Shown: positions 9,379-36,745, numbered from the stretch's first letter. The stretch is DNA of 64,000 bases from Candidatus Enterousia sp. (GCA_045587125.1 JAZNBN010000020.1:1796-65795); one strand, 5' to 3'. A program made the numbers and translations. Notes: generated from the letters alone by a model not told the origin.

Positions 9379-10509
9379 ATGAAAATCTTTATCATTGCCG
9401 GCGAGGTTTCTGGTGATGTTTTAGGTGGACGTATTATGTCCGAAATGCCAGATGCTGAATTTGTTGGTATTGGCGGCGAAAATATGCAGTCCACAGGATT
9501 GAAAACCCTGTTCCCAATGTCTGATTTGTCTGTTATGGGTATATTAGAGGTTGTTGCACATGCAAAGACACTAACAAAACGTATTAAACAGACTGTGAAT
9601 GCGATTTTAGAAGAAAAGCCAGATATAATTTTAACGATTGATTCCCCTGGTTTCGCCAAAAGTGTTATAAAACAGATTAAAAAATCAGAATCGGGTAAAA
9701 AACTGATAAAACAAGGTTTGCGTTTTCATCATGTTGTTGCCCCCCAGGTTTGGGCATGGCGGTCAGGACGTGCAAAAAAATATGCACGTACGTTTGATAA
9801 ACTGTATGCGTTTTTTGATTTTGAAGTGCCCTATTTTACTAAATATGGATTGGATACGGTTGCGGTTGGTCATCCAATTGCAGATGGTATAATTGGCAGG
9901 TTCAAGGCGACCACAAATGAAGATGCGGAAAAAATAATAACATTGGTCCCAGGCAGCCGTATGTCAGAGGTAAAACGTTTGTTGCCGTTGATGCGTGATG
10001 TTATTGATATGATGTATCGTAATGGATATATGGGGTACAAATTTGTAATTCCTGTGGTGGAAACTACGGCGGAATATATTGCTGGGGAAATAAAAAATTG
10101 GCCTGTTAAGCCAATGTTGGTGCCCGCAAATCAGCGTTACGATGTTTATTCCAAAACCTATGTCGCAATTGTGGCCAGTGGAACTGTGTCCGCTGAGTTA
10201 GCAATGATGCATGTGCCAACGATTGTTGTTTACAAGATGAATCCGATAACAACATGGATTGGGCGTAGATTGATAAAAGTAAAATGGGTTTCTTTGGTAA
10301 ATATTTTATTAAATCGTGGTGTTTATCCTGAATTTTTGGGTGGTGATGCCGTGCCGGAAAAGGTTATGAACGAATTACAATTATTAACTATACCATCTAA
10401 GCGTCAGAAAATGATTGCAGATTTAGAATCTGCAGATATTCTTTGGCAAAAAGATAGTGGTGGTGCAGGCAAGAAAATCGCAATGGAAATACAAAAAATG
10501 CTTAGATAA
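9379..10509 (+). CDS. lpxB: lipid-A-disaccharide synthase
   Basis: N-terminus MKIFIIAGEVSGD and GT19-family pattern throughout. Start chosen at the internal ATG of ORF 9325..10509, which overlaps lpxA by a few nt. Confidence 0.85.
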   Translation: MKIFIIAGEVSGDVLGGRIMSEMPDAEFVGIGGENMQSTGLKTLFPMSDLSVMGILEVVAHAKTLTKRIKQTVNAILEEKPDIILTIDSPGFAKSVIKQIKKSESGKKLIKQGLRFHHVVAPQVWAWRSGRAKKYARTFDKLYAFFDFEVPYFTKYGLDTVAVGHPIADGIIGRFKATTNEDAEKIITLVPGSRMSEVKRLLPLMRDVIDMMYRNGYMGYKFVIPVVETTAEYIAGEIKNWPVKPMLVPANQRYDVYSKTYVAIVASGTVSAELAMMHVPTIVVYKMNPITTWIGRRLIKVKWVSLVNILLNRGVYPEFLGGDAVPEKVMNELQLLTIPSKRQKMIADLESADILWQKDSGGAGKKIAMEIQKMLR

Positions 10510-10528
10510 AAAATCTAAGCATTTTTAA

Positions 10529-12973
10529 TTATTCATCTGTTTTGGTATATATCCCTTGGGGCAATAATGGTGCGGATAATATGGCCTTTTCTGATGTTAA
10601 GCATTTGCCCTTTTTGGTATTGTCCATGAAAATACATACCTGGTTTTCATCAGAAAATCCAATCGCGTCTTTCCATTTTGTATCATAATATATGGTTTCG
10701 CATTTTGTAGATTTACCATTTTGACTGCGACGTGCACCATTTTCCCAACATGAACACATGCCCCATGATTCAATATCTACAGACAGTCCATAATCACGTG
10801 GACACATGTTTTCGTTTGTCTTATCATCTGACTGGAATATGCCATATGTACTGATGATTTCTTTATGTTCATTTTTGGTACTTACTGTATAGATACATTT
10901 ATTATCTGGGTTATAATTGCCAGATATAAATTGTGGTTCAATAAAACGACCCTGCAGGTTATTACATTGTGTTGATAATACAGACAGGATTTGATTATAT
11001 ATTTCTGTTGCAATACCTGTTGGACGTAGGTAACGTTGGTTGAATGATAATGATGTATCGTCATTTAAAATACCGTATTTAAGTTGACCTGTTGAGTTGT
11101 AACTTAAACTGTCACCGGTACCCGAGACAGGGACTTTGTCAAGACCACCAAACGTCTGTTCTATTATATCCTTGCATGCTTCTATATTGTCTAATTGTTT
11201 CGCACATGGAGAAGTAATATTTTTTATTTGTTGTCCGGATTCTTCTGTGTATGTGTACAATGTGAACCAATCTGGGGCATTGCCAGGCAGGAAAAGTCCA
11301 CTGTATGGGTAATAAAAATTCTCGTAATTGGTACCGCCGTATTTATCAAAGCATTGTTGTGCAACCGCACGGCATGCGGTTAAATTATCAGTTTCCGTTT
11401 GGGTGTTAATGTATTCTGCGATGATGTCGCCAGCAAACAGATTGTTGCAAGAATCTACATAATCTGTGCACATTTGTGTACTAAGTTTTATTTGTTCTGG
11501 TTTGATAACAATGTTATTATTACCCGTCAAAGTAGCCATTGCGTTTGTTATGGCTTTGTTACTGTTTATATAGCAATTGGATACAAAGTCAAAACATCCC
11601 TGTTTAATTTCGGCAACTTTATCTTTTTGTGCGTAATATATATCCAACATCGCTTTGTCCAGATATTCAGCCCATACATAATCTGCATTTTCTGTACACT
11701 TATCCAATGCGGGTTCTGCAAACTTTTTAACACGACTTTCAAAATTAGAAACGAATGTTCTGTTGCCACTGATTTTAGATAGTTGTTGATTTTGTAAATC
11801 TTTATCGGTACTGAATGTTAACAATTTTTCCAGATTGTAAAAATCTTTGACACCTGCGATTGGGGCACCGGTTGTTATATCTATGTATTCGCCATTGTCA
11901 AGACATCTGTGATAATTTGCACCACAGACTTCTTCACTAAGTATTGCCATTTCAACTTCGTTTATACACGTTGTTATATCAGAAGAGTTATGTTTTTTTC
12001 TGTTTTCTACACGTGCTAAATCCAACATGGCACTGCCCTCGCGGATGGCGGATTTTAATTGTTTTTGTGTCGTTTCAATTGCAGTTTGAACCGTGTTGCA
12101 ATCTTGTTCAACCGCCATCAGATATGCAGTAATGGCACGTTGTAATGATGCGTCGCTGCAGACATCTTTGACCGCCTGACGACATTGTGGGTATACCGCT
12201 TGATATAATGCCTGGCCATTATATGTTGCGATTACTTGACCGGAATCCGTCATCCCAAATGCATTCGCGGTATCAAAAGATATATTTATACTGTTTAAAT
12301 CAGAATATTTACCGCCAACATTTGTGTCTTCGCCACGTATGGAATTCATGATTGCCTGTAATAACGCCTTGGATGCGGATTTATCAGATGTTAACGCGGC
12401 TTCGCCTTCGGATTCTTGACGCATTGCAGATGCCTGGGCATATGTCATGCCGACAACTTCCAGATTTTCATTGAACGCTTGTAATTGGGTATTTGCATCC
12501 TGTAAAGTATCGCGCATTTTTATCATGTCAAATACGCGATCGTTACAAGAGCAACGACGATAATCGTCATTTTTTAACGTGCAAAATTGATCCATACATG
12601 TAAAATACGCGGTTTTGCATTGTTCATATGCGGCACCTGTTTTTGTTGTTGGTGTTGTATTGTCGGTTGTTGCACGTGCCTTGATTTTTTGTTGTGTTTG
12701 ATTTTGTTTTATTGCACTGCGTTCATTTATGTTTCGGTTGGGTTGTTTTTTATTGATTGCACGAACATTGGTTTCCGGCCCAATGGATGCACTGCGTGGT
12801 GTTAATATCGTTGCGTTTCTGGATGAAACAGATGTGCGTTTTTGCACAGAAGATACGCGGCTTTGTTGTTGTGGTTTTGCGGTTCTGGATAATGCGTTGC
12901 CATCACGGACCGCTGCATCGGCAATGCCGATACAGAACAAGAAATTCGCAATATAAACAAGAATTTTCTTCAT
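10529..12973 (-). CDS. secreted cysteine-rich protein, paralogue A of a lineage-specific ~810-aa family (CMDQFC...YRRC core)
   Basis: Signal peptide MKKILVYIANFLFCIGIADA, then a basic Ser/Thr/Asn-rich low-complexity segment, then a ~650-aa Cys-rich domain. Alignable by eye along its length with the 44653..47091 product. Confidence 0.7.
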   Translation of the reverse strand: MKKILVYIANFLFCIGIADAAVRDGNALSRTAKPQQQSRVSSVQKRTSVSSRNATILTPRSASIGPETNVRAINKKQPNRNINERSAIKQNQTQQKIKARATTDNTTPTTKTGAAYEQCKTAYFTCMDQFCTLKNDDYRRCSCNDRVFDMIKMRDTLQDANTQLQAFNENLEVVGMTYAQASAMRQESEGEAALTSDKSASKALLQAIMNSIRGEDTNVGGKYSDLNSINISFDTANAFGMTDSGQVIATYNGQALYQAVYPQCRQAVKDVCSDASLQRAITAYLMAVEQDCNTVQTAIETTQKQLKSAIREGSAMLDLARVENRKKHNSSDITTCINEVEMAILSEEVCGANYHRCLDNGEYIDITTGAPIAGVKDFYNLEKLLTFSTDKDLQNQQLSKISGNRTFVSNFESRVKKFAEPALDKCTENADYVWAEYLDKAMLDIYYAQKDKVAEIKQGCFDFVSNCYINSNKAITNAMATLTGNNNIVIKPEQIKLSTQMCTDYVDSCNNLFAGDIIAEYINTQTETDNLTACRAVAQQCFDKYGGTNYENFYYPYSGLFLPGNAPDWFTLYTYTEESGQQIKNITSPCAKQLDNIEACKDIIEQTFGGLDKVPVSGTGDSLSYNSTGQLKYGILNDDTSLSFNQRYLRPTGIATEIYNQILSVLSTQCNNLQGRFIEPQFISGNYNPDNKCIYTVSTKNEHKEIISTYGIFQSDDKTNENMCPRDYGLSVDIESWGMCSCWENGARRSQNGKSTKCETIYYDTKWKDAIGFSDENQVCIFMDNTKKGKCLTSEKAILSAPLLPQGIYTKTDE

Positions 12974-13108
12974 CTCTGGGTTAATCTTAGCAAAATTGTA
13001 AAATACGGTGCAAGTGAATAATAGGGTTAAAAAATAAAATTTATATGCATAAATAAATTTTTCTTGTTGCAATTATGTTGAAATTGGGTTATATTTCTTT
13101 GGCTTTAT

Positions 13109-13195
13109 GGGCATATGGCGGAATTGGTAGACGCGCTAGTTTCAGGTACTAGTGGTAGCGATACCTTGGAAGTTCGAGTCTTCTTATGCCCACCA
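13109..13195 (+). tRNA. tRNA-Leu (anticodon CAG)
   Basis: Cloverleaf with acceptor GGGCATA/TATGCCC, long variable arm, anticodon loop TTCAGGT, T-loop GTTCGAGTC, encoded CCA. Confidence 0.8.
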
Positions 13196-13205
13196 GAAGT
13201 TTTTT

Positions 13206-13281
13206 GGGGTTGTAGCTCAGCTGATAGAGCGCTACGTTCGCATCGTAGAGGTCGTGGGTTTGAGTCCCATCAGCTCCACCA
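13206..13281 (+). tRNA. tRNA-Ala (anticodon CGC)
   Basis: GGGGTTGTAGCTCAGC...; G3:U70 Ala identity pair; anticodon loop TTCGCAT; T-loop TTTGAGT; encoded CCA. Confidence 0.8.
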
Positions 13282-13301
13282 ATTTTGATAAAAAAGTCTT
13301 C

Positions 13302-13388
13302 GGGGATATGGCGGAATGGTAGACGCTGAGGACTTAAAATCCTTTGGTCATTGCGACCGTGTGGGTTCGAGTCCCACTATCCCCACCA
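13302..13388 (+). tRNA. tRNA-Leu (anticodon TAA)
   Basis: GGGGATATGGCGGAATGGTAGACGC..., long variable arm, anticodon loop CTTAAAA, T-loop GTTCGAGTC, encoded CCA. Confidence 0.8.
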
Positions 13389-13392
13389 GAAA

Positions 13393-13421
13393 TTAAAAAT
13401 GCCCGAATGGGCATTTTTTTA
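13393..13421. terminator. bidirectional rho-independent terminator after the tRNA cluster
   Basis: Hairpin ATGCCCGaatGGGCAT followed by T-run. Confidence 0.6.
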
Positions 13422-14546
13422 CTTGGTATGTTTCATATGTTGTTGCATAACCATTTTTTTGATTTTTGGATTCAGTTCATATACGCCACTTTTTTCCAAG
13501 AATTCAAACAGGTAATCGCGTCTTAGGTATAAGGTGATTTTTGGACCGCGTCTTTTATATTCAATCGCACCCGCAGGTAATTTAGATTGCATTTCTTTAA
13601 ACAATTGTGGCATTTGGCGAACATGGGTATGAAACATTTCTTCTATTTCACGTGCAGCAATCCAATTTTTATCGTCTTTGGTGTCGTATATATACAGACC
13701 TGTTATTGCACAAAAATCGTTCATGTATTCTTGATTCAGGCACAGGTGTGTTTTTGGACCGCTTTTTCTGAATTCAATTGCACCATTGGGCATTTGACTG
13801 CGCAGTTCGTGCAACATTGTTGGCAGATTGTTTAGTCTACGCTTTGTTTTTTGTCGGATTTCTTTGGCAGACAGCCAATTGTTATCTTTTTTTGGGATGG
13901 TTTGCAGTTTCGCAGCGGTTACAAAATCTTGAAGATAATCTTTGTGTAGGTATATTGTTGTAACTTTACCGCAAAGTCTTTTTTGTAATATAGATTTTGG
14001 TAATGTACCCTGGGTATACAAATCATTTAATATAGATGGTATTTTGTCATGTCTTATATGTAATTGTTGGGCGATTTCATGACTGTTTAGCCATTCTGGC
14101 GTTTTTAGAATTGATTTTTGTATTCCGGCGATTTCACAAAACATATCCAAGAAGTCTTTGTGTAAAACAAGTATATATTTGTTTGTATGTTTTTGTAATT
14201 GAATTGCACCTGGGGGCATTGTATGTTGGTATTGTGTTAATAATCCATATATTTGGCTGTGGTGTGAATGTAATATGTGGGCAATGTTCGTTGCGGTTAA
14301 GTAATTAGAATCAGCGGTAAAAGATTTTGATATTTGTGCCAGTTTGCAAAATTGTGGCAAATATTTGCGTTTCAGAATTAATATGCGGGGACCACAACGT
14401 CCAATCGGAGACAGTGTTGTTGCGTCCGGTGGTAACATGTCTTTGAAATGGCGTAATTTATCACGTACAGTGCGTGCACGGATGTTGAACATTTTTGATA
14501 TTGTATCAGGAAAAATGAAAGTATCATTGTTTTCCATGTTTTTCAT
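13419..14546 (-). CDS. protein built of five tandem ~65-aa excisionase/MerR-like (HTH_17-like) repeats; putative DNA-binding protein
   Basis: Five repeats with spacing W(L/I)xAxEI...LPxGAI(E/Q)xxKxGPKxxLxLxx(D/E)Y(L/M)xDF. The repeat tail resembles excisionase-type HTH (LPAxKIGxRWRIxxxDLxxFL). The ORF extends to 14567 with a TTG start; the ATG at 14546 is more plausible. Confidence 0.6.
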   Translation of the reverse strand: MKNMENNDTFIFPDTISKMFNIRARTVRDKLRHFKDMLPPDATTLSPIGRCGPRILILKRKYLPQFCKLAQISKSFTADSNYLTATNIAHILHSHHSQIYGLLTQYQHTMPPGAIQLQKHTNKYILVLHKDFLDMFCEIAGIQKSILKTPEWLNSHEIAQQLHIRHDKIPSILNDLYTQGTLPKSILQKRLCGKVTTIYLHKDYLQDFVTAAKLQTIPKKDNNWLSAKEIRQKTKRRLNNLPTMLHELRSQMPNGAIEFRKSGPKTHLCLNQEYMNDFCAITGLYIYDTKDDKNWIAAREIEEMFHTHVRQMPQLFKEMQSKLPAGAIEYKRRGPKITLYLRRDYLFEFLEKSGVYELNPKIKKMVMQQHMKHTK

Positions 14547-14560
14547 GTTTAGTCCTTTTG

Positions 14561-14595
14561 TTGACAAATTATAATGTAAAACTATCGTTTGTCAA
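14561..14595 (-). promoter_or_regulatory. consensus sigma70-type promoter (TTGACA-N16-TATAAT, minus strand) bracketed by an 8-bp inverted repeat TTGACAAA...TTTGTCAA
   Basis: Minus-strand read TTGACAAACGATAGTTTTACATTATAATTTGTCAA lies just upstream of the start of the HTH-repeat gene. The inverted repeat spans -35 through +1. Confidence 0.5.
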
Positions 14596-15044: not shown

Positions 15045-15078
15045 TAAAAAACGTCTGATTGTATCAGACGTTTTTTTG
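15045..15078. terminator. bidirectional rho-independent terminator
   Basis: Hairpin AACGTCTGATtgtATCAGACGTT followed by T-run. Confidence 0.6.
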
Positions 15079-15091
15079 TTATATTAATTTT

Positions 15092-15409
15092 TTATCGCAA
15101 TCCTTTTGATCGACAACATCCAGATGCGGCGGCACGCCAATCAGAATATTCTTTGTTTGGGTTACGCAGGTCACGCCATGGTTGCCAACCACTGCAACGT
15201 TTGTTTGAACCTGTGCCAGAACATTTTGCATAACGACGCAGTGAACATGTTTGATTTGAAACTTTGCCTGTATCGGTTGTGCATTTTACAACAACATTTT
15301 GATTTTTTGCATCATTTTTACCCAATTCTTTGGACGATAAAACCTGATACGCGTTTGCGGTGCAAATTGTGCTGGTAGCCATAATAATTGCAAGTAGTAT
15401 TTTTTTCAT
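15092..15409 (-). CDS. small secreted cysteine-rich protein (105 aa), unknown function
   Basis: Signal peptide MKKILLAIIMATSTICTANA and 8 Cys in about 85 mature residues. Confidence 0.5.
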   Translation of the reverse strand: MKKILLAIIMATSTICTANAYQVLSSKELGKNDAKNQNVVVKCTTDTGKVSNQTCSLRRYAKCSGTGSNKRCSGWQPWRDLRNPNKEYSDWRAAASGCCRSKGLR

Positions 15410-15475
15410 ATTGGTGCCCCCTGCTTTGATTTCATAACTATTATAAAAAAATATCAGATAAAAAACAATGGGATT

Positions 15476-17140
15476 TTATTGGGGGTTGGTTGACCATGGT
15501 ATATCGTTCATAATCAGATAATATAATTCCGCATTATCTTGGCCTGGGTTACGTAATACGGGGCGTACAACAAATATATCGACATTACATGGTGTGTTTG
15601 TATTATCTTGGACTTCGGTTAAATCCTCATAAAACTTAGCAGCAAAATCCATGACTTGCAGATATGCGGCGTCGTCGTCGGTTGCATTGGTTGAATTGCC
15701 CATCCACATTAGCCACATACCATAATTTATGGTATCTTCTTGGCCAGCAATATCGTCTGCGGACAGCAATAACAAAGGCTTAAAATCGACACCACTGGTA
15801 AATTCGTCGGTACTGGTTTCTGTAAAGTCCCAAAACAGACCGCCAATTGTGCCCAATGCACCAAATGCCAGACTGCCTATGGTTTCTAATTTTGCCAATG
15901 CACCTGCATTTCTTAGTGTAGAATGAAACAGGTAATCACGAATTTGACCGGACAGTTTACTGCTGCGTCCCAGTTTGGCCGCTTTGTTTATTAATTTATT
16001 TCCTGAAAATGCTGCTTTGACACCCTTGCCTACACGTACAGTGCGTGCAAATATGTTTCCACGTTGTGCGATTTTGTGTAACGAGTTTACGCCACGCAGT
16101 TCATGTCTATATTTGTTTAATTCAGAATATGTTTTACTGGCTTCTTTATATTTTTTTACATCATCACTGTTTTCCAGTGTTTTTAATGTATCGTTTATTT
16201 TATTCAGTTCACGTTGTTTGTCTGCGATTTTTGCTGCGTCTTTTACTTTATCTAATGTTTTTATTTCATCGGCTAATTTAGCAGCTTGTCCGGATATCTT
16301 TATGTGATCACGGACAGCGTCAACGTTACGAAGTTGTTTTAATGTGGTTCGTAGACCTTTTAATGCACGTGCGGCACGTGGCGCCTTGGTGGCCCCCAAT
16401 ACAACTGTGCCAGTCCCAGCTGTTAATACAGTGATGGCGACATCCAGTGCTATTTCTGCATATCCAACCCATTCCAGGTTTTTATTGCCTGCAACGTAGT
16501 AATCGTTGGAATCATCTTTGATACTGACTGTTTGTATCATTGCACGATTTATTGCGTCTCCGTCACCTGTCCAGGCAGTTTCACTGGTGCAACTTAGACC
16601 ACGCGGATAAAAACTGTCGAAATTATCATTTATATATTTCATTGAAATTGTGTTGTTTTTATCAGGACCAACAAATTCATCCAGTGTGCCTGATTCAACA
16701 ACCATAATACCGTACCATGCAGGATCTGTATTTGTCCAAACAGTATCGCCATCTTCACCAATTTTTGGGTTGGGGTCACTGGACGGCAGACTTCGTTTTT
16801 GTCCCAATGTCAGCCGTTGTTTTAGAATTTTTGGTTGTGTTTCGTAATTTACAATTATTTCACGACCACCTGGGAAAGTGTATTTTATTGGTGCGAATTT
16901 AATTGTTTCTGTTTCCGGAACAGATGATATTTCTGGACAATTTAAAACCGATGATAAAACTTTGTGATTGTAAAAAGTTTTATATATCCATTCTTTGATT
17001 ACGTCTGGTTCGTCTTGTTCGGTAACTGTGTCGGCTGTTTGTGCCAAAGCGTTCGCAAAAATCTGTGAGGCACAAGGTGTGGCATTTGCGTTTGTAAATA
17101 TCATCAGAAAAAAAACAAAAAATATTAAATTTTTTTTCAT
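15476..17140 (-). CDS. secreted protein with central coiled-coil and glycine-zipper-like hydrophobic segments, unknown function
   Basis: Signal peptide MKKNLIFFVFFLMIFTNANA. Segments AITVLTAGTGTVVLGATKA and SLAFGALGTIGGLFW. Lys-rich coiled-coil. Confidence 0.6.
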   Translation of the reverse strand: MKKNLIFFVFFLMIFTNANATPCASQIFANALAQTADTVTEQDEPDVIKEWIYKTFYNHKVLSSVLNCPEISSVPETETIKFAPIKYTFPGGREIIVNYETQPKILKQRLTLGQKRSLPSSDPNPKIGEDGDTVWTNTDPAWYGIMVVESGTLDEFVGPDKNNTISMKYINDNFDSFYPRGLSCTSETAWTGDGDAINRAMIQTVSIKDDSNDYYVAGNKNLEWVGYAEIALDVAITVLTAGTGTVVLGATKAPRAARALKGLRTTLKQLRNVDAVRDHIKISGQAAKLADEIKTLDKVKDAAKIADKQRELNKINDTLKTLENSDDVKKYKEASKTYSELNKYRHELRGVNSLHKIAQRGNIFARTVRVGKGVKAAFSGNKLINKAAKLGRSSKLSGQIRDYLFHSTLRNAGALAKLETIGSLAFGALGTIGGLFWDFTETSTDEFTSGVDFKPLLLLSADDIAGQEDTINYGMWLMWMGNSTNATDDDAAYLQVMDFAAKFYEDLTEVQDNTNTPCNVDIFVVRPVLRNPGQDNAELYYLIMNDIPWSTNPQ

Positions 17141-18480
17141 TGTATTAAACTGTCGCATTGTTGTTGCAAAATAGTTATTTCATTTTGAATGCGTTGTATT
17201 AATGCAGGGTATGGGTCGTTTGGAACAGAACTGTCCCCGTTTATTAGACGCCAATTATAGCAAAAATTTTGTGTGTCTGGGATATATTCCACATATGCAT
17301 TTGCAGGTGGTTCACCGTTACAATATCTGGTGACGCATTCTGGCGCCCATGCATCATCTTTCCATAATCCATCCCACCATGATGCAGGTTTGTCCGAACC
17401 ACCCTGTAAACATTGACGAACCCCCGGACGTTTTACAGTCATTTTGCCATCTGATGATTCAACACCACAAAACATATATTCACCTATTTGTGCCTGGCGT
17501 TGACCCTTGTTAAAGGCGGTATTACAACATGTAAATAGACCAGTTTCTGGATCGTGCAAACAATCTGTTTCCGAGAATAATTGTGAACCTGCGATTACTG
17601 TACCAAGGACTGTGCCAACAATTGCACCAACACCATTACCAATTACAGGTACAGCGGTACCAATTGCCATACCTGTTGTTAAACCGCCAACTGCACCTGC
17701 AAAAAGATTGCCTACGCTGTGTTTGTCTTTGCCTGTGACGGTAGAGGCAACAGTCAAAACGCCCCCAACCCCTGCAACAGCTGTACCAACTTTTGCGGCT
17801 GTACTCATACCTTTCCAACCCTGGGGTGTAGTGTTTGCAGGTGCCTGATTAGTTGATTGGTTTGTGCCAGCACCTGTTTGAGTTGCAGCTTGATTCGTAC
17901 CTGCGCCCGTTTGAGTCGCTGCTTGATTTGTACCTGCACCCGTTTGAGTCGCTGCTTGATTCGTACCAGCACCTGTTTGAGTCGCTGCTTGATTCGTACC
18001 TGCGCCAGTATTTGTCCCATTTGGTGGTGTTGCTGATGACGGTGTTGTTCCACTTGGAAATGCTGTGCCGGATGTCGTAACATTAGGAGTTGTTGGTGTT
18101 GGCGCAGATGTTGTGGCAAATTGATTCGTACCTGCGCCAGTATTTGTACCATTTGGTGGTGTTGCTGATGACGTTGTTGTCCAACTTGGAAATGCTGTGC
18201 CGGATGTCGTAACATTAGGAGTTGTTGATGTTGGCGCAGATGTTGTGGCAAATGGTGTAATTGGAATTGGTGTAGAAGTTGGTGGCATATTTCTGATGTG
18301 GTCTGGCATTCCTGTGGTGCTAACGAATTGACCATTTACTGCGTTACGAAATCTGTTGTCTGGTGTTCTTATCAGTTGTACATCTGGATCATTCCATGCG
18401 GCACATAATGCGCTGTTTGTTGTCATCGCAACAAAACAAGAAAGCGCAATATTAAAAAGAAGATATTTTTTGTGTATCAT
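17137..18480 (-). CDS. secreted Thr/Pro-rich repeat protein with Gly-rich hydrophobic region and Cys-rich C-terminal domain
   Basis: Signal peptide. Tandem peptide repeats (QAATQTGAGTN x5 and a ~43-aa unit x2). GxxxG-rich segment AVGGLTTGMAIGTAVPVIGNGVGAIVGTVLG. C-terminal domain with about 10 Cys. Overlaps flanking genes by 4 nt. Confidence 0.6.
   Translation of the reverse strand: MIHKKYLLFNIALSCFVAMTTNSALCAAWNDPDVQLIRTPDNRFRNAVNGQFVSTTGMPDHIRNMPPTSTPIPITPFATTSAPTSTTPNVTTSGTAFPSWTTTSSATPPNGTNTGAGTNQFATTSAPTPTTPNVTTSGTAFPSGTTPSSATPPNGTNTGAGTNQAATQTGAGTNQAATQTGAGTNQAATQTGAGTNQAATQTGAGTNQSTNQAPANTTPQGWKGMSTAAKVGTAVAGVGGVLTVASTVTGKDKHSVGNLFAGAVGGLTTGMAIGTAVPVIGNGVGAIVGTVLGTVIAGSQLFSETDCLHDPETGLFTCCNTAFNKGQRQAQIGEYMFCGVESSDGKMTVKRPGVRQCLQGGSDKPASWWDGLWKDDAWAPECVTRYCNGEPPANAYVEYIPDTQNFCYNWRLINGDSSVPNDPYPALIQRIQNEITILQQQCDSLIQ
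17861..18250. repeat. nested in-frame tandem DNA repeats (about 33 bp x5 followed by about 130 bp x2) inside the Thr/Pro-rich gene
   Basis: Direct repeats visible in the sequence (e.g. cctgtttgagtcgctgcttgattcgtacctgcgcc recurring). The second block is duplicated nearly identically at about 17998 and 18128. Confidence 0.75.
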
Positions 18481-19367
18481 AAATATGTTCCCTTTAATTT
18501 GCATTTTGATAATTCAATATTTTGTTGCTGACATTGTTGCAGTGTTTTCAAATCTTCAACCAATATTTGATATTTTGCATTGGAATTTGTGCAATAAGCA
18601 TTTTTTTGTTGTTCAACTCGCTTGCGACGTGTAAGAAATTCTTCCTCTGATTCTATTTCAATTTCTGTGTATGCACGACTGTCTTTATATGGTTCATAGC
18701 CCTTGGTTTCGTTTGCGATGCGTTCCGCAAATGACAAATCTGCGTATGTGGCTGGAAAACTGGCACGTTGCAGGCCAACGTTGTTTGCACCATTTTGGTT
18801 TTGTAATGATTCCAGTTCGTTTTTGCGTTCCTGCATTTCTTTGGCCCATTCAGGAACATTTGGGGCAAATGGATTTGGAATGTTTATTCCCGAATCGTAT
18901 GCGTTCGGATTTGGTGCGGTTGCATTTGGAAAAGCAACATGCCCAGACGGACCAGATGTTGTATAGTTTGCCTTGTATTGTTCAAATGCACTGTCCAAAT
19001 ATCCAGAACATGACGATATATAATTGCCATCAGATATTCGTGACAGTTGTAATAACACAGCAGGTCTAATGTCGTTTAATGTGGTGCTGGCACAATTGTT
19101 TAACAGTGCACACTGGGAAATAATTAAATTATAAACGATTGTTTGACAATCTTCTGAATCAATCTTGGGACCAGTGGCGTATACAGGTTGTGGCATACGC
19201 ATGTTGTATGGCCCATTTGGATCGTATCCAGGTTGGGTCGAATATTTTTGTACGTTTTGAATAACGCCGTATTGTGAAAATGGTGATGGAGATGAGGCAC
19301 GTGACGAATATGTGCAAAAAATGCAACCTGTCAATAATGCTAAAATACTGGGGTTATTCACTCTCAT
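18477..19367 (-). CDS. lipoprotein, unknown function
   Basis: Signal peptide with lipobox LLTGC. Ser/Pro-rich linker. Acidic coiled C-terminus. Confidence 0.55.
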   Translation of the reverse strand: MRVNNPSILALLTGCIFCTYSSRASSPSPFSQYGVIQNVQKYSTQPGYDPNGPYNMRMPQPVYATGPKIDSEDCQTIVYNLIISQCALLNNCASTTLNDIRPAVLLQLSRISDGNYISSCSGYLDSAFEQYKANYTTSGPSGHVAFPNATAPNPNAYDSGINIPNPFAPNVPEWAKEMQERKNELESLQNQNGANNVGLQRASFPATYADLSFAERIANETKGYEPYKDSRAYTEIEIESEEEFLTRRKRVEQQKNAYCTNSNAKYQILVEDLKTLQQCQQQNIELSKCKLKGTYL

Positions 19368-19398
19368 CTTTCCTTAATTGATTCCCTGTTTTGATTTA

Positions 19399-19869
19399 TT
19401 ATAACAAAAATATGTTTGTAATCAAAGATAAAAATCCCCCAAATAAAAAGAAAGGTGCAAATGGAATAAATTTTTGCCTTTTTATGTTTGCCCAAATTGC
19501 ACCTGTGATACATGCAATGATCAATGCGGTTGCCATGCCGGTTATCCCCAACCAAATGCCACCTACCCCCATTAATTTTATGTCACCCATGCCAATTGGA
19601 GATTCTGAATTTGGATTTTTTTTGCGTAAAATAATGTCAAATATAAAACCGATTAAAACGGACATTGTGTACCCAAATATTGCGCCAATAACCGCGTCTG
19701 TAATTGGAATTGGAAATGCGTAAAATGTAGTTAATGTCAGACCGCACAGCATCAGTGGAAATAAATATGCATCTGGAATAATTCTGCGGCGAAAATCAGC
19801 AATTGAAATCAAAACAGAACATAATATGGCCAATATTAATAAAAATATAAAAAATATGTATGAAATCAT
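19399..19869 (-). CDS. A24-family prepilin peptidase, short CpaA/TadV type (no methyltransferase domain)
   Basis: 156 aa polytopic protein with the two catalytic Asp contexts (ADFRRRIIPD and GMGDIKLMG). Confidence 0.7.
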   Translation of the reverse strand: MISYIFFIFLLILAILCSVLISIADFRRRIIPDAYLFPLMLCGLTLTTFYAFPIPITDAVIGAIFGYTMSVLIGFIFDIILRKKNPNSESPIGMGDIKLMGVGGIWLGITGMATALIIACITGAIWANIKRQKFIPFAPFFLFGGFLSLITNIFLL

Positions 19870-19942
19870 GTTTTTCTCCCTTGCGTTTCGAATCGGATTT
19901 ATGATAGAATCTTATTATAATGTATAACAAAGGTTTTGTAAA

Positions 19943-20609: not shown

Positions 20610-22859
20610 ATGCAAAACGAGAGAGAAAATATTTTTCAGCCACTGACCGCGATTGATTATGATATCGCAGGTAATTCTTTTCGGGCGTATTATGATTCGG
20701 ATAATAAACTGGTTTTTGTTATTGATTTCGTAACCAATGCCATTAAGCCTAATGTTTTGTTGGTTATAAATCCTGATGGTGACAGAAAGTGGGACGATAT
20801 TTTAATGAACGATTACGGGGTTGATTTAGAAACCGTTCGTCCAAAGCAAGACAATAAATATCAAAAGTTGGATATAGAGTATACCGGTTTGTCTGTTTAT
20901 GATAATTTAATTCAGGTCTATAATAATGGTGATGATATATCAGACGAAATTTCGTATTTAGATGCATTTCATCATGATGCGGCGTATCGTGCCGCCCAAG
21001 AACGCTTTGAAGCCGCAGAAATGACGGCGGACCGTACCCGTGAAACAATTGACAGAACGATGGGGGTTATTGCAGAGTTGCAGGCACGTTTAAAAGTTCT
21101 GCGTTCCAAATTGGCTTTGCAACGTAAATCTATTGGTAAAGAACCAACCAAGAAATCTGCGTCCAAGATTTTGCGTACTGAATCACAAATAGACGCAACA
21201 AATGAAAAACTGATGCGTGCAAAAAAACGTCTGACAAATGCAAAACGCAGGTTGGTCGTTGCCGAAGAGGATTCAGAGGTTGCACGTTCAATACTAAATA
21301 AATTAGGTGGTGTTTCAGAATTGCCTGCAAAACCGTTAAACACAGCGGTCGCGGTGAAACAAAACCCACCTGTCCCGGTAAAAAAACAAGATATCGAATA
21401 TACAGATACAACAATAGAGGCTGAAAAAATGGCTGATAATAACGAAGAAGTAAAACCTTTATTTGATACAGATCCTGAAATCATAGATGAAGATATTGCT
21501 TTTAAACCAATCGATTTTGGTTCAGGGTCAGATAGTAATGATGACGAATATCAAACAAATGTTCAAGTCGAAGAACAGCCCACGGTATCTTTTGAACCTA
21601 TCCCTGGGATTCCAGATGTGCCAAGTGCGGTTGAAACACCTGCGATTCAGCCTGTGGAATTTACACCACCGACCAGTTTTGAATCGTTTGAACCTTCTGA
21701 AAATACAGGAAATGAATATGGTATGCCTGGGGCATTTACCCCTGCCCCGATTGTGGAAGAAAATACTAATGAATATGAAACGTTGACTGGCTGGGGTGAT
21801 GACAATGCTGTCGTGCCAGATGTGAACACTTCATTTGGTAACACAGTAACATCGGAAACTTTGGCCGAAGAATTCCAAATGCCGATTACACCTGCACCGG
21901 TTGCCCCTGTGACACCTGTGGTTGATAATGAAAAAACTTTTTCAGAAATAGAACCTGCACCGGTGGATTCTGGTATGCGTCCCGTTTCCCCAATAACACC
22001 AGATGTTCCAGTTGCACCGTCTGATACAGATACGAATATAACAATTCAACGGTCCAGACCTTCGTTTGTTTACTATATTTTATTGATTTTATTGATTGGG
22101 TTGTCTGTATTTACTTTGTGGATGTATCAAAAATCTACAAATGGCAATTTGCCTGAATTGGGTGCGAAAACTCAGGTTGAAGAAACCATAACAGAACCTG
22201 TTGTGGCAGAACCAGAAGTACAGATTGTTGAACCTGTTGTGGCAGAACCTGTGGTTGTAGAACCGGAATACGTTGAACCAGAACCGGTTATAGAAGAACC
22301 AGTTGTGGAACCAGAACCCGTCATAGAAGAACCGGTCGTTGAACCAGAACCTGTTACAGAAGAACCAGTTGTGGAACCAGAACCAGAATTTGTGCCAGAT
22401 ACAACATCTGCATCTGTTATAAAGTCTTTGCGTTATACCGAAGAAGTGCCAGAACCTGTTGTTTTGGAAACGGAAGAAGAAATATTGGCTAAAAAGCCTG
22501 CGTATGGTGTTTCGCAAAACGAACAAATGTTTGTTTCAGAATATGAATCTGATGCAGATATGAATACAGAAATGGATTTTGTTGCATATGATACAGGTGT
22601 TATTACATATGATGAACCATCGGTTGTTACAACAACAACGTATGAATCAGAAGAAATTATTGCATACAATGAACCTGATGTTTATGCGGACGATGTTTTT
22701 GTAGAAGAAGTTGTAGAAGAAGATATTGAAATGTGTGCAGATGGCGGTTACCCAAGTCCAGAAGGTTGTTGTGCAGGGGAAGTTTATACGCATGTTGGAA
22801 ACGGCGAATATGTATGTTGTGTTCAATCAACAGGTGAATGTTTCCCGCCAATGCGTTAA
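20610..22859 (+). CDS. acidic coiled-coil/repeat protein with one transmembrane segment and a Cys-rich C-terminus, unknown function
   Basis: 749 aa. TM segment FVYYILLILLIGLSVFTLWMY. (EPVVEPEPV[IT]E)n repeats. C-terminal CADGGYPSPEGCCAGE...CCVQSTGEC. Confidence 0.55.
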   Translation: MQNERENIFQPLTAIDYDIAGNSFRAYYDSDNKLVFVIDFVTNAIKPNVLLVINPDGDRKWDDILMNDYGVDLETVRPKQDNKYQKLDIEYTGLSVYDNLIQVYNNGDDISDEISYLDAFHHDAAYRAAQERFEAAEMTADRTRETIDRTMGVIAELQARLKVLRSKLALQRKSIGKEPTKKSASKILRTESQIDATNEKLMRAKKRLTNAKRRLVVAEEDSEVARSILNKLGGVSELPAKPLNTAVAVKQNPPVPVKKQDIEYTDTTIEAEKMADNNEEVKPLFDTDPEIIDEDIAFKPIDFGSGSDSNDDEYQTNVQVEEQPTVSFEPIPGIPDVPSAVETPAIQPVEFTPPTSFESFEPSENTGNEYGMPGAFTPAPIVEENTNEYETLTGWGDDNAVVPDVNTSFGNTVTSETLAEEFQMPITPAPVAPVTPVVDNEKTFSEIEPAPVDSGMRPVSPITPDVPVAPSDTDTNITIQRSRPSFVYYILLILLIGLSVFTLWMYQKSTNGNLPELGAKTQVEETITEPVVAEPEVQIVEPVVAEPVVVEPEYVEPEPVIEEPVVEPEPVIEEPVVEPEPVTEEPVVEPEPEFVPDTTSASVIKSLRYTEEVPEPVVLETEEEILAKKPAYGVSQNEQMFVSEYESDADMNTEMDFVAYDTGVITYDEPSVVTTTTYESEEIIAYNEPDVYADDVFVEEVVEEDIEMCADGGYPSPEGCCAGEVYTHVGNGEYVCCVQSTGECFPPMR
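22193..22400. repeat. in-frame tandem repeats of about 30 bp encoding EPVVEPEPVIE units
   Basis: Repeated gaaccagttgtggaaccagaaccc... units visible in the sequence. Confidence 0.6.
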
Positions 22860-22878: not shown

Positions 22879-25227
22879 ATGAGAGTGATATTAAGTTTTT
22901 TTGCTGTGTTGTTGTTCATGTCTTTTGATATGGGGGCGTATGCTGCCCTTAATGCATCGGGAAATAGCAGTTCACCTGCATGTGCGGGTAAAGATAAAGC
23001 GGTTACATTAACGGATCGTTGCCCCAGTGTTCCACAGTTGAAATTGCTTGGGAATCAATCTTTAAAAGATAACGAATTTTTATACGCTAGTTACAGTACA
23101 TACGAATCTTTGCAAAAAGAATATAATAAAAGACCTGCGGCGTGCAGAACATATTTTAGTACCAATCAAGCCAATGGTGTTTATGAGTGTGATAAAGATT
23201 ATTGTGGCAGATATACTGTATTGATAATGGATAAAAATCACGGTTTTAATGGAAAGACAGTGGCTGATAAACGTGCATATATATGTGATACTAATGTTGA
23301 TGATAGATGGATTCCATATTCACATAACATATCTGAATGCACAAAAGGTCAGATGGATACAAAGTCTTATACAAAAATCAAGGGACTGGACGGTTTACAA
23401 TACAGATATAAAAAAGATGCTACAAGAATTACTTCTATATGTCAGGTTCCTCAGGATAAATCAAATGTTCAACAAACAGGCGATAATACGGTATCTAAAA
23501 CCGGTACTCAGGGGGCGACACGTTCGGAAACAAAACCAGATGGTGAAACAACAGAAGATAAAACGCCCAAAAAAAATACGGTAGAGAAACCACAACCAGA
23601 ACAATCAACAAATAAAACACAACATGAAAATGTGGGTGATGAAAAAATTGGTCAGCCTTGTACGACAGAAAATGCAAAAAAGGCTGTTTGGCAAAAAATT
23701 GATAAAGAAATCAAATGTGTTGCCAAAGAATGTAATCAGGACAGATATTTGGTTGTGAATAGTAAAGGTGAATCTCAAGGGTACTGTATTGCGAATACTT
23801 GCAAGGCACCAAAAACATTAAATATTATTGACGGAACAAAAACTGATAAAAGGTGCGTTGACCCCGCTGCATCGGAAATTGCAGAAGAAACAATCGAAGA
23901 AGATGTTGAAGAAGAATTACCAACTGTGCCATTCAGACCAGATTTACAAATTAACCAGCCATGTGCACAAGGTTTTTTGACGATATTAAACGCAAAGACC
24001 GGTAAATATGCTAAGCATGCAGGTTCTGATGATATTTATTGTGATATAACAGAATGTAATGAAAATTTTGTGAAAGTATCACGAAATCAAGGTGAAACGT
24101 ATGATGATTATAATGGAGTGAATTTGTACGAAATATGTGAATGTCCTAGTGAAACTCATACTATAAATAATGAAGGTAAATGTGTTGCAAATACGAATGG
24201 TGTGCCTGCAACGGATAGAACACCTGCTGAAGCTAATGTTAGTATAACAGTACAAGGCACGATTAACGATAGCGCAGGTAATTGTCTTGCGAATGCAGAG
24301 ATTGTATTTCCAGATGGTGCATATATAAATCAAGAGGGTTGTAACTTTACTGTTGGATTACAAGAATCTGGCGAAATTACTTTTTCATTTGATGGTTATG
24401 AATCTGTATCCAAGAGTTATAGTGAAAGTGTATATAATGAAATAATTGTTTTGACAAAGTCTGCAACAGATGTTGCGGTTGATGAAGGTAACGAAGCAGT
24501 TGTGCCAGATGAAGGTTTAGAAGAACAGGATAAAGAACCAATTGATAAAGAAGACGATAAAATCCAAGAATTACGTGATAAAGCTGATGCGGCACATGAA
24601 CGCGAAAATTCAATGGCGAATAAAATGTTGGGTGCGGCCGGTATCGGTGCGACCGGTATTGGTGGAATGATGCTGATGCAGGGATTGTCTGAACAAAAGG
24701 CGGATAACAATGCCCAGGAACAAATGCGCGCATATTTGTCCACATTTATGTGCAGATTTGGTGATGGCCGTGCCACGGGCGGTGAATCTGATATTGAATT
24801 GCCGGGTGCAAACGCATTATTACCACTTTATGCCGAATATGTAACATTGGCAAATGAAACCAAGGCTATGAAGACAGAACTGGATTTAAAACCAGGTATA
24901 GAATCTGAAAGTATCTTGGATAACGCAACATCTGGTTTGTATGATGATGAAAATACTGGCAAAACATCTGGTGCATTTGCTTCATTGGCACGTGCATTAC
25001 AAAACCCAGATGGCGAAGATGCGAAAAAATGGGCCGAACAAACTGAAAAAGCATCTAAGAACATAAAAACAGGTGCGATTACTGCGGGTGCCGGTGCGGT
25101 TGGCGGATTGGTTGGTCATATTACTGAAAGTGCGGTTTATAAAAAGAAGGCTGAAAAAGGTAATGAAGATTCAGACGATGAATCTGAAGATAAAAAATAT
25201 AAACCTAAAAAACGTGGAAGAAGTTAA
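22879..25227 (+). CDS. secreted cysteine-rich protein (782 aa) with C-terminal Gly-zipper hydrophobic segment and Lys/Glu-rich tail
   Basis: Signal peptide MRVILSFFAVLLFMSFDMGAYA. About 50 Cys. Segment MLGAAGIGATGIGGMMLMQGL. No recognisable enzymatic motif. Confidence 0.55.
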   Translation: MRVILSFFAVLLFMSFDMGAYAALNASGNSSSPACAGKDKAVTLTDRCPSVPQLKLLGNQSLKDNEFLYASYSTYESLQKEYNKRPAACRTYFSTNQANGVYECDKDYCGRYTVLIMDKNHGFNGKTVADKRAYICDTNVDDRWIPYSHNISECTKGQMDTKSYTKIKGLDGLQYRYKKDATRITSICQVPQDKSNVQQTGDNTVSKTGTQGATRSETKPDGETTEDKTPKKNTVEKPQPEQSTNKTQHENVGDEKIGQPCTTENAKKAVWQKIDKEIKCVAKECNQDRYLVVNSKGESQGYCIANTCKAPKTLNIIDGTKTDKRCVDPAASEIAEETIEEDVEEELPTVPFRPDLQINQPCAQGFLTILNAKTGKYAKHAGSDDIYCDITECNENFVKVSRNQGETYDDYNGVNLYEICECPSETHTINNEGKCVANTNGVPATDRTPAEANVSITVQGTINDSAGNCLANAEIVFPDGAYINQEGCNFTVGLQESGEITFSFDGYESVSKSYSESVYNEIIVLTKSATDVAVDEGNEAVVPDEGLEEQDKEPIDKEDDKIQELRDKADAAHERENSMANKMLGAAGIGATGIGGMMLMQGLSEQKADNNAQEQMRAYLSTFMCRFGDGRATGGESDIELPGANALLPLYAEYVTLANETKAMKTELDLKPGIESESILDNATSGLYDDENTGKTSGAFASLARALQNPDGEDAKKWAEQTEKASKNIKTGAITAGAGAVGGLVGHITESAVYKKKAEKGNEDSDDESEDKKYKPKKRGRS

Positions 25228-36384: not shown

Positions 36385-36416
36385 AAAAATATGCACAATA
36401 TGTGCATATTTTTGTT
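36384..36416. terminator. bidirectional rho-independent terminator shared by tolA (+) and rnpB (-)
   Basis: Hairpin ATATGCACAatATGTGCATAT flanked by A-run and T-run. Confidence 0.65.
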
Positions 36417-36745
36417 TCAGATTCACATGTAAGCCGGGTTCTGTTCTGCCGTTCCCAGTATAATGATTTATACCAAATAACGGTAGTGGACATGATTAAT
36501 CTGCATATTGCATTACTGCATATGTCAAGCCTTCTACCCGCCCCCGATGCGGGACACATATATGGGGGCCTATTTGAAGTTGCTGCACGTAGAGATTGCC
36601 CGTTTCACCCGAATTTAATCGTATCGTCACTGTTGCTCTAATCGTCAGGTCACCCTGCCCGGTATATTAGCCGGTACGCTGTCCCGTGCAGCCCGGACTT
36701 TCCTCTGATTGCTCAGCCATGTCCCGTGCTTCTGATGTATGGTAT
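36408..36745 (-). ncRNA. rnpB: RNase P RNA (bacterial type A), boundaries approximate
   Basis: Reverse complement contains universally conserved P4 strands GAGGAAAGTCCGGGCTGCACGGGACAGCG (5' half) and ACAGAACCCGGCTTA (3' half) in the correct order. GC-rich compared with surroundings. Candidate promoter TTGAAA-N17-TATTAT on the minus strand near 36750..36781. Confidence 0.8.

Follow-up and report, generated by a model that had tools for sequence, protein, structure and literature searches.

A CpaA-type prepilin peptidase heads a conserved operon of predicted exported, lineage-specific proteins in Candidatus Enterousia

What does an intact, conserved prepilin peptidase do in a lineage for which no pilus genes have been reported? 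This puzzle for A24 peptidase biology is posed by a five-gene operon on the minus strand of a 64,000-nt stretch of DNA from Candidatus Enterousia sp. (GCA_045587125.1 JAZNBN010000020.1:1796-65795), hereafter called the window, from whose first letter all positions are counted. The five genes run in the same direction from 19869 to 15092 as determined by open reading frame (ORF) calling. They encode a CpaA-like A24 peptidase (gene 1) and four further proteins (genes 2 to 5), all of which carry Sec-type signal peptides at their N-termini. Enterousia belongs to the order Rs-D84, which occurs widely in ruminant, horse, bird and human guts and is represented by gut metagenome-assembled genomes (MAGs) of less than 1 Mb (PMC12306168). 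Members of this order lack biosynthetic pathways, respiration and standard transporters, and they are predicted to be obligate symbionts or parasites that were proposed to draw metabolites from partner cells (PMC12306168). They also lack flagella, and type IV pili were reported for another lineage with no mention of them for Rs-D84 (PMC12306168). On the surface structures of Enterousia, the literature offered only a statement that many hypothetical membrane proteins exist. We found that the location of the operon between gcrA and lpxB is conserved across the order Rs-D84, and sequence analysis shows the products of genes 2 to 5 as predicted exported, lineage-specific proteins with no detectable relatives outside this clade.

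Gene 1 (19399..19869, minus strand, 156 aa) encodes an intact TadV/CpaA-type A24 peptidase, a new member of a known family. The product matches Pfam Peptidase_A24 (PF01478) with E=1.3e-16 and 61.4 bits against a cut-off of 26.5, spanning profile positions 2-103 of 104. It consists of the A24 membrane domain alone, in the TadV/CpaA-like short form without an N-terminal methyltransferase domain. The sequence contains both Asp motifs (ADFRRRIIPD and GMGDIKL). As 18 of 18 aligned Rs-D84 homologues also keep the Asp and GxGD, the enzyme is intact and under selection. No solved homologue could be aligned; the two Asp residues are presumably the catalytic ones, an assignment that we take from established knowledge of the A24 family. 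Annotated A24 peptidases on plasmids are 33-39% identical to gene 1.

We searched for a substrate and for an assembly machinery of this peptidase. A class III leader, i.e. a short basic leader, Gly at position -1, a hydrophobic helix and Glu at +5, was found neither in the operon nor in the 64-kb window nor in 22 related loci, and motif scans of the window ORFs revealed no Flp or type IV prepilin N-terminus. The initial annotation had already noted that the four downstream proteins carry no such leader, in line with their Sec-type signal peptides. It had also stated that no tad/cpa secretion ATPase or secretin lies nearby, and our scans agree. Among the scanned window ORFs of at least 150 aa, none contains a tad, pil or gsp Pfam domain (ORFs of this size outside the Pfam scan are mainly antisense or alternative-frame overlaps of annotated genes), and no pilin, ATPase, platform protein or secretin was detected in the operon, the window or the ~10 kb flanks of the 22 related loci. 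In particular, CpaF/TadA, TadB/C, the RcpA/CpaC secretin and CpaB/RcpC were absent from the scanned window ORFs and from the called genes flanking the related loci. A gene for an Flp pilin or TadE/F beside the peptidase is impossible on its upstream side, because only 73 nt separate the peptidase from gcrA. Gene 1 thus resembles its counterparts in Tad/Flp loci in its short A24 form, both Asp residues and the GxGD motif, whereas flp, tadE/F, the CpaF/TadA ATPase, TadB/C and the secretin are missing beside it and in the scanned 64 kb, and the peptidase heads Sec-exported orphans instead. Diverged versions of cpaB, cpaC or cpaD were rejected, as no Pfam or NCBIfam signal was obtained. Together, these observations support the view that the locus is not recognisable as a pilus locus.

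The arrangement of the five minus-strand ORFs, with the A24 gene in first position, is as initially annotated, and so are the 4-nt overlaps and small gaps between them. The junctions from gene 1 to gene 5 measure 31 nt, an ATGA overlap (genes 2 and 3), a second ATGA overlap (genes 3 and 4) and 66 nt. Good Shine-Dalgarno sequences precede genes 1 and 2. A sigma-70-like promoter (TTTACA-17-TATAAT, 11 of 12 positions matching) lies at 19914..19942 on the minus strand, within the 73-nt gcrA/A24 intergenic region (19870-19942), and a bidirectional terminator-like hairpin with a 14-bp stem and A/T runs on its flanks is located at 15046..15076 between gene 5 and a convergent 117-aa ORF. These DNA signals support the five genes as one putatively co-transcribable unit. 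The intergenic region is nearly invariant in 16 of 17 related loci, both promoter hexamers included. It contains the CcrM-type methylation motif GANTC at 19890..19894, ~20 nt upstream of the A24 start codon, and this site is conserved at the same position in 16 of 17 loci; a second GANTC at 19907-19911 is not conserved, and the background in the window amounts to 2.5 sites per kb. The conserved site presumably has a regulatory role, and the invariant region around it may reflect cell-cycle (GcrA/CcrM) control of the operon. The A24 promoter has its -35 hexamer immediately next to the start codon of gcrA, which implies that the divergent gcrA and A24 transcription units must overlap.

For comparison with relatives, one genome per species was scanned, which yielded 19 loci, mostly labelled Candidatus Enterousia or Alphaproteobacteria MAGs from animal gut and including one complete 716-kb chromosome. 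The position of the operon between gcrA and lpxB was kept in these 19 species-level genomes as well as in metagenome contigs. Where the region is covered, the consensus order begins with gcrA and a gene for a 749-aa protein (orf749), which are transcribed away from the operon. The A24 gene and genes 2, 3 and 4, an optional hydrolase gene, gene 5 and an optional gene for a Cys-rich 850-aa protein follow on the other side, and a convergent lpxB closes the region. For genes 1, 2, 4 and 5, tblastn showed conservation in as many as 19 other genomes (E-values from 1e-33 to 0), which argues that the five ORFs are real genes, and the gene order was held down to 46% peptidase identity. The median amino-acid identity to the window was 89% for trigger factor, 75% for gene 5, 74% for LpxB, 65% for GcrA, 61% for the A24 peptidase, 58% for gene 4 and 45% for gene 2. 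Gene 5 is therefore as conserved as LpxB and exceeds all other products of the operon.

Gene 2 (18477..19367, minus strand, 296 aa) encodes a protein in which a Sec signal peptide is followed by a three-helix bundle that contains Cys (residues ~71-135) and then by a linker and further helices. Four Cys residues (74, 86, 92 and 120) are invariant among 133 homologues, and the three-helix bundle is the confident part of an AlphaFold2 model with a mean predicted local distance difference test score (pLDDT) of 77. No sequence match in the PDB and no Foldseek fold match to the PDB at E<=0.001 were obtained. The protein had initially been described as a lipoprotein, an assignment that we rejected: the LTGC sequence of the window is not conserved, and homologues carry AHA|S or other AxA-type signal peptidase I sites. 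Cys15 is not conserved in 68 homologues, both Cys15 and Cys18 fall outside the invariant or nearly invariant columns and, Met1 apart, conserved columns start only at Ser31. Towards its C-terminus gene 2 contains the motif FPxTYADLSFxERxxNxxxGYEPYKD (residues ~199-266), which recurs directly after the signal peptide of two GH108 muramidases and one M23 endopeptidase (41% identity over 70 aa, E=2e-9). The muramidases are encoded between genes 4 and 5 of loci L001 and L009, and the endopeptidase gene of L013 adjoins the operon. It may be speculated that the common motif serves as a docking or targeting element. Furthermore, genes 2 and 3 are fused in five loci. A Pfam search for known cargo domains in ten long or fused gene 2 variants revealed a single Flg_new repeat only.

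A second setting of gene 2 was observed in L023, where a homologue with 46% identity (9722-11537) lies beside an OmpA-family gene, with a 56-aa ORF upstream and a variable partner of its own downstream. According to this arrangement, gene 2 and a variable partner appear to be a separable module that can be duplicated.

Gene 3 differs from the other genes of the operon in its variability. In the window (17137..18480, minus strand) it encodes 447 aa from the ATG at 18480, the longest ORF being 17137-18504 with 455 aa. In the product, a signal peptide leads into ~200 residues of Thr/Pro/Gly-rich repeats. A glycine-zipper hydrophobic hairpin follows (residues ~234-312, counted in the 455-aa ORF), and the C-terminal domain contains 9 Cys. 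Tandem DNA repeats at 17870..18253 on the minus strand (33 nt x 4.1 and 132 nt x 2.0) encode GAGTNQAATQT and the Thr/Pro-rich protein repeats. Six GxxxG and nine triple small-xxx-small motifs were counted in residues 226-316. Homologues of this type are present in only three of the 19 loci (with the window, four of 20 genomes). In the remaining loci the slot is occupied by at least three further families, hence at least four in all, one of which is a gene 4 paralogue (L005, L017 and L019; hhalign probability 100%). The window gene 3 itself was rejected as such a paralogue (hhalign probability 0.6%). Between most pairs of gene 3 families the hhalign probability was below 5%, and a single match of 67% covered a Gly/Ala-rich segment only. 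Three of the four families and the gene 3 of L012 have only a signal peptide and a Gly/Ala-rich hydrophobic segment in common. As judged by these comparisons, the gene 3 slot is hypervariable between species. The L012 protein showed a sub-threshold match to Bacteriocin_IIc (E=2.7e-4), and a match of the window protein to a PHROG family of 'tail associated lysin' (E=1.3e-6) was confined to low-complexity and Gly-rich sequence (residues 148-307).

The 'Cys-rich domain plus glycine-zipper' design of gene 3 is also found in a secreted 782-aa orphan encoded at 22879-25227 (plus strand), which has 23 Cys and, in its C-terminal part, two hydrophobic stretches rich in Gly, LGAAGIGATGIGGMMLM and GAITAGAGAVGGLVG. 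No homologue of this protein was found in the related loci searched.

Gene 4 (15476..17140, minus strand) encodes 554 aa from the ATG at 17140, a start that agrees with the NCBI product P0001; the longest ORF spans 15476-17158 (560 aa). A signal peptide and an alpha/beta N-domain (~20-200) are followed by a hydrophobic helix (~233-255) and a helical stalk, beyond which lie a Gly-rich segment of amphipathic character and the conserved C-terminal domain. The AlphaFold2 model (pLDDT 63) shows the alpha/beta N-domain, a helical stalk of ~200 residues and a C-terminal alpha/beta part, and the stalk length varies across homologues. More than 880 homologues were detected, all of them from gut or rumen metagenomes or from MAGs labelled 'Alphaproteobacteria bacterium', and the family forms 135 clusters at 50% identity among 1.84 billion proteins. 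It is thus restricted to this clade. Neither PDB nor BFVD searches gave a sequence or fold match (Foldseek against the PDB none at E<=0.001). The first hydrophobic helix is hydrophobic family-wide (median Kyte-Doolittle value 1.6). In homologues, K, R, D and E occur within the second stretch, and it does not qualify as hydrophobic (median 0.88). Glycine-zipper stretches and Cys-rich C-terminal domains had been ascribed to the products of both gene 3 and gene 4. Both features hold for gene 3 and fail for gene 4, whose two stretches contain zero and one GxxxG and which has four Cys, all invariant, with one in the C-terminal part. A prepilin-like site before the second stretch (RNAG|ALAKLE) was rejected, as its Gly and Glu are not conserved and the stretch is charged in homologues.

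The 749-aa protein, which is encoded at 20610-22859 (plus strand) and always lies downstream of gcrA, precedes gene 4 directly in L022, which makes it a possible partner of the proteins of the operon. Its N-terminal part is a cytoplasmic coiled coil; a single transmembrane helix (~486-506) comes next, then an acidic region rich in Pro, Glu and Val, and the small C-terminus is rich in Cys.

Gene 5 (15092..15409, minus strand) codes for a 105-aa precursor with a signal peptide and an 85-residue basic mature part that contains six invariant Cys and an invariant C-terminal KGLR. We detected 496 homologue clusters, and all those with a named source are Alphaproteobacteria MAGs. A profile search against the PDB gave no match. 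The invariant Cys sets of the operon proteins suggest disulfide bonds formed in an oxidising compartment.

Genes 2 to 5 belong to no Pfam or NCBIfam family. For the 455-aa and 560-aa ORFs (genes 3 and 4), there was no Pfam match even at E<=0.1, the Gly-zipper and VacA families included, and the family profiles of genes 2, 4 and 5 gave nothing below E=0.08 against PDB sequences. PADLOC defence models yielded only chance matches to coiled-coil or Gly-rich sequence (E >6e-5), and no relatives of genes 4 or 5 were found among the 2.9 million viral contigs of IMG/VR. An origin from phage, defence system or plasmid was rejected, since PHROGs, PADLOC, IMG/VR and BFVD were negative or gave low-complexity matches only.

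Genes 2 to 5 and their arrangement also fit none of the described systems that we compared them with, and we infer their status as one functional system. With Gly-zipper 2TM outer-membrane lipoproteins (SlyB/PCP, Rickettsia 17-kDa antigen), the window gene 3 has in common a Gly/Ala-rich two-segment hairpin with repeated GxxxG, and we take this hairpin to resemble the SlyB type. However, gene 3 has neither a Pfam match nor a lipobox, and its hairpin lies between 200 aa of repeats and a 140-aa Cys-rich domain. The closest likeness in logic, and in logic only, is to polymorphic effector loci such as those of the type VI secretion system, contact-dependent growth inhibition and the Caulobacter Cdz glycine-zipper bacteriocins: a conserved gene 2 is followed by or fused to unrelated variable modules, its motif is carried by peptidoglycan hydrolases, and the Gly-rich segments look membrane-active. 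In contrast to such loci, there is no type I, V, VI or VII secretion system, no adjacent immunity gene and no toxin domain beyond the accessory GH108 and M23 enzymes. Alpha-pore-forming toxins (YaxAB/XaxAB, Hbl/Nhe/AhlABC) are likewise operon-encoded helical proteins with a hydrophobic element, and two adjacent paralogues occur in some Enterousia, but no sequence or Foldseek similarity was detected and gene 4 adds conserved alpha/beta domains at both termini as well as four invariant Cys.

The explanation that we favour, tentatively and at somewhat less than even confidence, is that the operon encodes a Sec-exported envelope or contact module that is specific to the lineage and combines a conserved scaffold with outward parts that can be exchanged. 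Genes 2, 4 and 5 would form the envelope-anchored scaffold, with gene 3 as the exchangeable component, directed outward or acting on a target. The optional GH108 and M23 hydrolases with the putative gene 2 docking motif would play a role similar to that of gene 3. This division is proposed because genes 5, 4 and 2 retain identities of 75, 58 and 45%, respectively, compared to at least four families without detectable homology in the gene 3 slot. Such a module would most likely mediate contact with a partner cell or host surface, by adhesion and possibly by local attack on membrane or cell wall. The peptidase would most likely mature pilin-like proteins encoded elsewhere; its co-expression with genes 2 to 5 could be explained if these substrates act in the same process. 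In support of the module are the operon signals, the conserved order and position, the Sec-type signal peptides, the fusions of genes 2 and 3, the accessory hydrolases, the Gly/Ala-rich hydrophobic segments, the sub-threshold Bacteriocin_IIc match and the reduced-genome, partner-dependent lifestyle. The initial annotation had proposed a surface or effector module rather than a pilus locus. The lack of pilus genes in the window and the related loci, the exported orphans, the hypervariable gene 3 and the added hydrolases fit this proposal.

Several observations weigh against a contact module. As genes 2 to 5 match no library or fold, we infer scaffold, cargo and contact alike. Machinery for secretion across the outer membrane is missing from the locus, and the variable slot has no immunity-like gene beside it. 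Gene 4 has an ambiguous topology, with one good hydrophobic helix and one non-hydrophobic segment, yet its four invariant Cys are split 3+1 across them. In L022 the operon is split, and the gene 2 homologue of L023 has no A24 gene, gene 4 or gene 5 nearby. Finally, in a small clade whose genomes are reduced, a conserved gene order may be due to inertia and not to a functional link.

The strongest alternative is one that we regard as possible though rather unlikely: the A24 peptidase would be a housekeeping enzyme that matures Flp, pseudopilin or competence pilins from other parts of the genome, the unrelated lineage-specific genes 2 to 5 would serve wall remodelling or division of the cell itself, and their linkage would be coincidental and frozen by synteny. 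In its favour, the operon contains no class III substrate. Housekeeping genes of the cell cycle and the envelope (gcrA, lpxA/lpxB, trigger factor) surround it, the conserved GANTC lies in the promoter region beside gcrA, and the wall of the cell itself could be the target of the GH108 and M23 enzymes. The L023 gene 2 homologue without A24 and the split operon of L022 would also be explained. However, the 31-nt spacing, the single upstream promoter and an order kept down to 46% peptidase identity speak for more than chance, and housekeeping wall proteins are rarely swapped for unrelated families between sister species, as gene 3 is. Moreover, the survey of Rs-D84 reports no pili for this order (PMC12306168).

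More doubtful is a secreted membrane-damaging toxin set, in which genes 3 and 4 would be alpha-helical pore formers similar to two-component alpha-pore-forming toxins or glycine-zipper bacteriocins, released so that partner cells are killed or permeabilised, with the hydrolases as co-effectors. The glycine-zipper hairpin of gene 3 with its six GxxxG motifs, the two-paralogue arrangement in L005, L017 and L019 and the long helical stalk plus hydrophobic helix of gene 4 point in this direction, as do the weak Bacteriocin_IIc similarity of the L012 gene 3, below the cut-off, and the accessory muramidase and endopeptidase. Yet there is no Pfam match to the Gly-zipper, VacA, ClyA/Hbl or colicin families and no Foldseek match to a pore-forming toxin (the best hits of gene 4, at E=0.027, were generic helical proteins). 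The second segment of gene 4 is not hydrophobic across the family, no export route beyond Sec and no immunity gene were found, and genes 4 and 5 are under strong purifying selection, which would be unusual for toxins in an arms race. The identity as pore-forming glycine-zipper proteins that had been suggested for genes 3 and 4 is likewise not supported.

It is very unlikely that the operon is a dedicated, non-canonical protease-substrate pair, in which the GxGD peptidase cuts an operon product at the cytoplasmic loop of the Gly-rich hairpin, for instance at ...KHSVG|NLFAG... of gene 3. The product would be pilin-like, with an N-terminal hydrophobic helix and a disulfide-bonded globular domain, and would arise without class III leader or pilus ATPase. 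The peptidase is indeed intact and encoded first, and no canonical substrate is nearby. In the window gene 3 the second hydrophobic helix would cross the membrane outwards; a charged loop with Gly as its last residue comes before it, and the 9-Cys domain, which must be periplasmic, comes after it. The loop motif (E/K)H(S/T)xG(N/D)(V/L) is present in all four proteins of this type. Against this, the loops of homologues are acidic or neutral instead of basic and have no Glu at +5, the other gene 3 families contain no comparable loop, the candidate Gly of gene 4 is not conserved and not followed by a transmembrane helix, and there is no known machinery to assemble such a product.

That the operon is a decayed or strongly diverged Tad/Flp locus, or what is left of the lysis or tail genes of a prophage, is extremely improbable and largely refuted: gene 1 is CpaA-like, the genes are roughly of the size of cpaB/cpaC, GH108 enzymes are common in phages and gene 3 has its weak PHROG match, but RcpC/SAF, secretin, TadZ, ATPase and TadB/C domains are all missing, that match is low-complexity and Gly-rich only, genes 4 and 5 have no relatives in the 2.9 million viral contigs or among BFVD folds, and the chromosomal position beside housekeeping genes is stable in all genomes.

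The operon is one of the few conserved and clearly envelope-directed gene sets in Enterousia genomes and thereby a concrete candidate for the cell-cell interface. A bolder version, to which we give little credence, holds that this pilus-less lineage has kept the GxGD protease as dedicated maturase of a new kind of Sec-exported, hairpin-anchored envelope complex, with genes 2, 4 and 5 as scaffold and gene 3 products and hydrolases as interchangeable cargo, by which the bacterium attaches to partner cells and taps them. If true, it would represent an undescribed contact apparatus and a new class of A24 substrates. If instead a tad locus is present elsewhere and genes 2 to 5 are wall-maintenance factors of the cell itself, the finding reduces to four new lineage-specific families.

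The surroundings of the operon contain further exported orphans. Secreted proteins of 847 aa with 30 Cys (10529-13072, minus strand) and of 812 aa (44653-47091, plus strand) are paralogues with 32% identity over 413 aa that belong to no Pfam family, and the 847-aa protein comes after the operon in eight related genomes. Many Cys-rich exported orphans thus seem typical of the clade. Between the 847-aa gene and the gene for a 382-aa repeat protein lie three tRNA genes, Leu-CAG, Ala-CGC and Leu-TAA (13109-13388, plus strand), which are kept in ~10 related loci. The 382-aa protein (13419-14567, minus strand) has several internal repeats, a weak DUF5997/helix-turn-helix-like similarity and no signal peptide; as it was not found in the related loci, its gene was probably inserted only recently between the tRNA cluster and the operon. 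In GCA_017463185.1 (L001/L002), a relative whose genome is smaller than 1 Mb, a Cas9 with HNH, RuvC and Cas9_RuvC domains is encoded ~9 kb downstream of the operon (20670-21671), which indicates that a type II CRISPR system has persisted there in spite of extreme genome reduction. Ordinary housekeeping genes (secA, dnaE, rsmH, dnaK, ruvB, lpxA/B, bamD, murJ, tig) make up the rest of the window, and a class A RNase P RNA (174 bits) is encoded at 36413-36735 on the minus strand.

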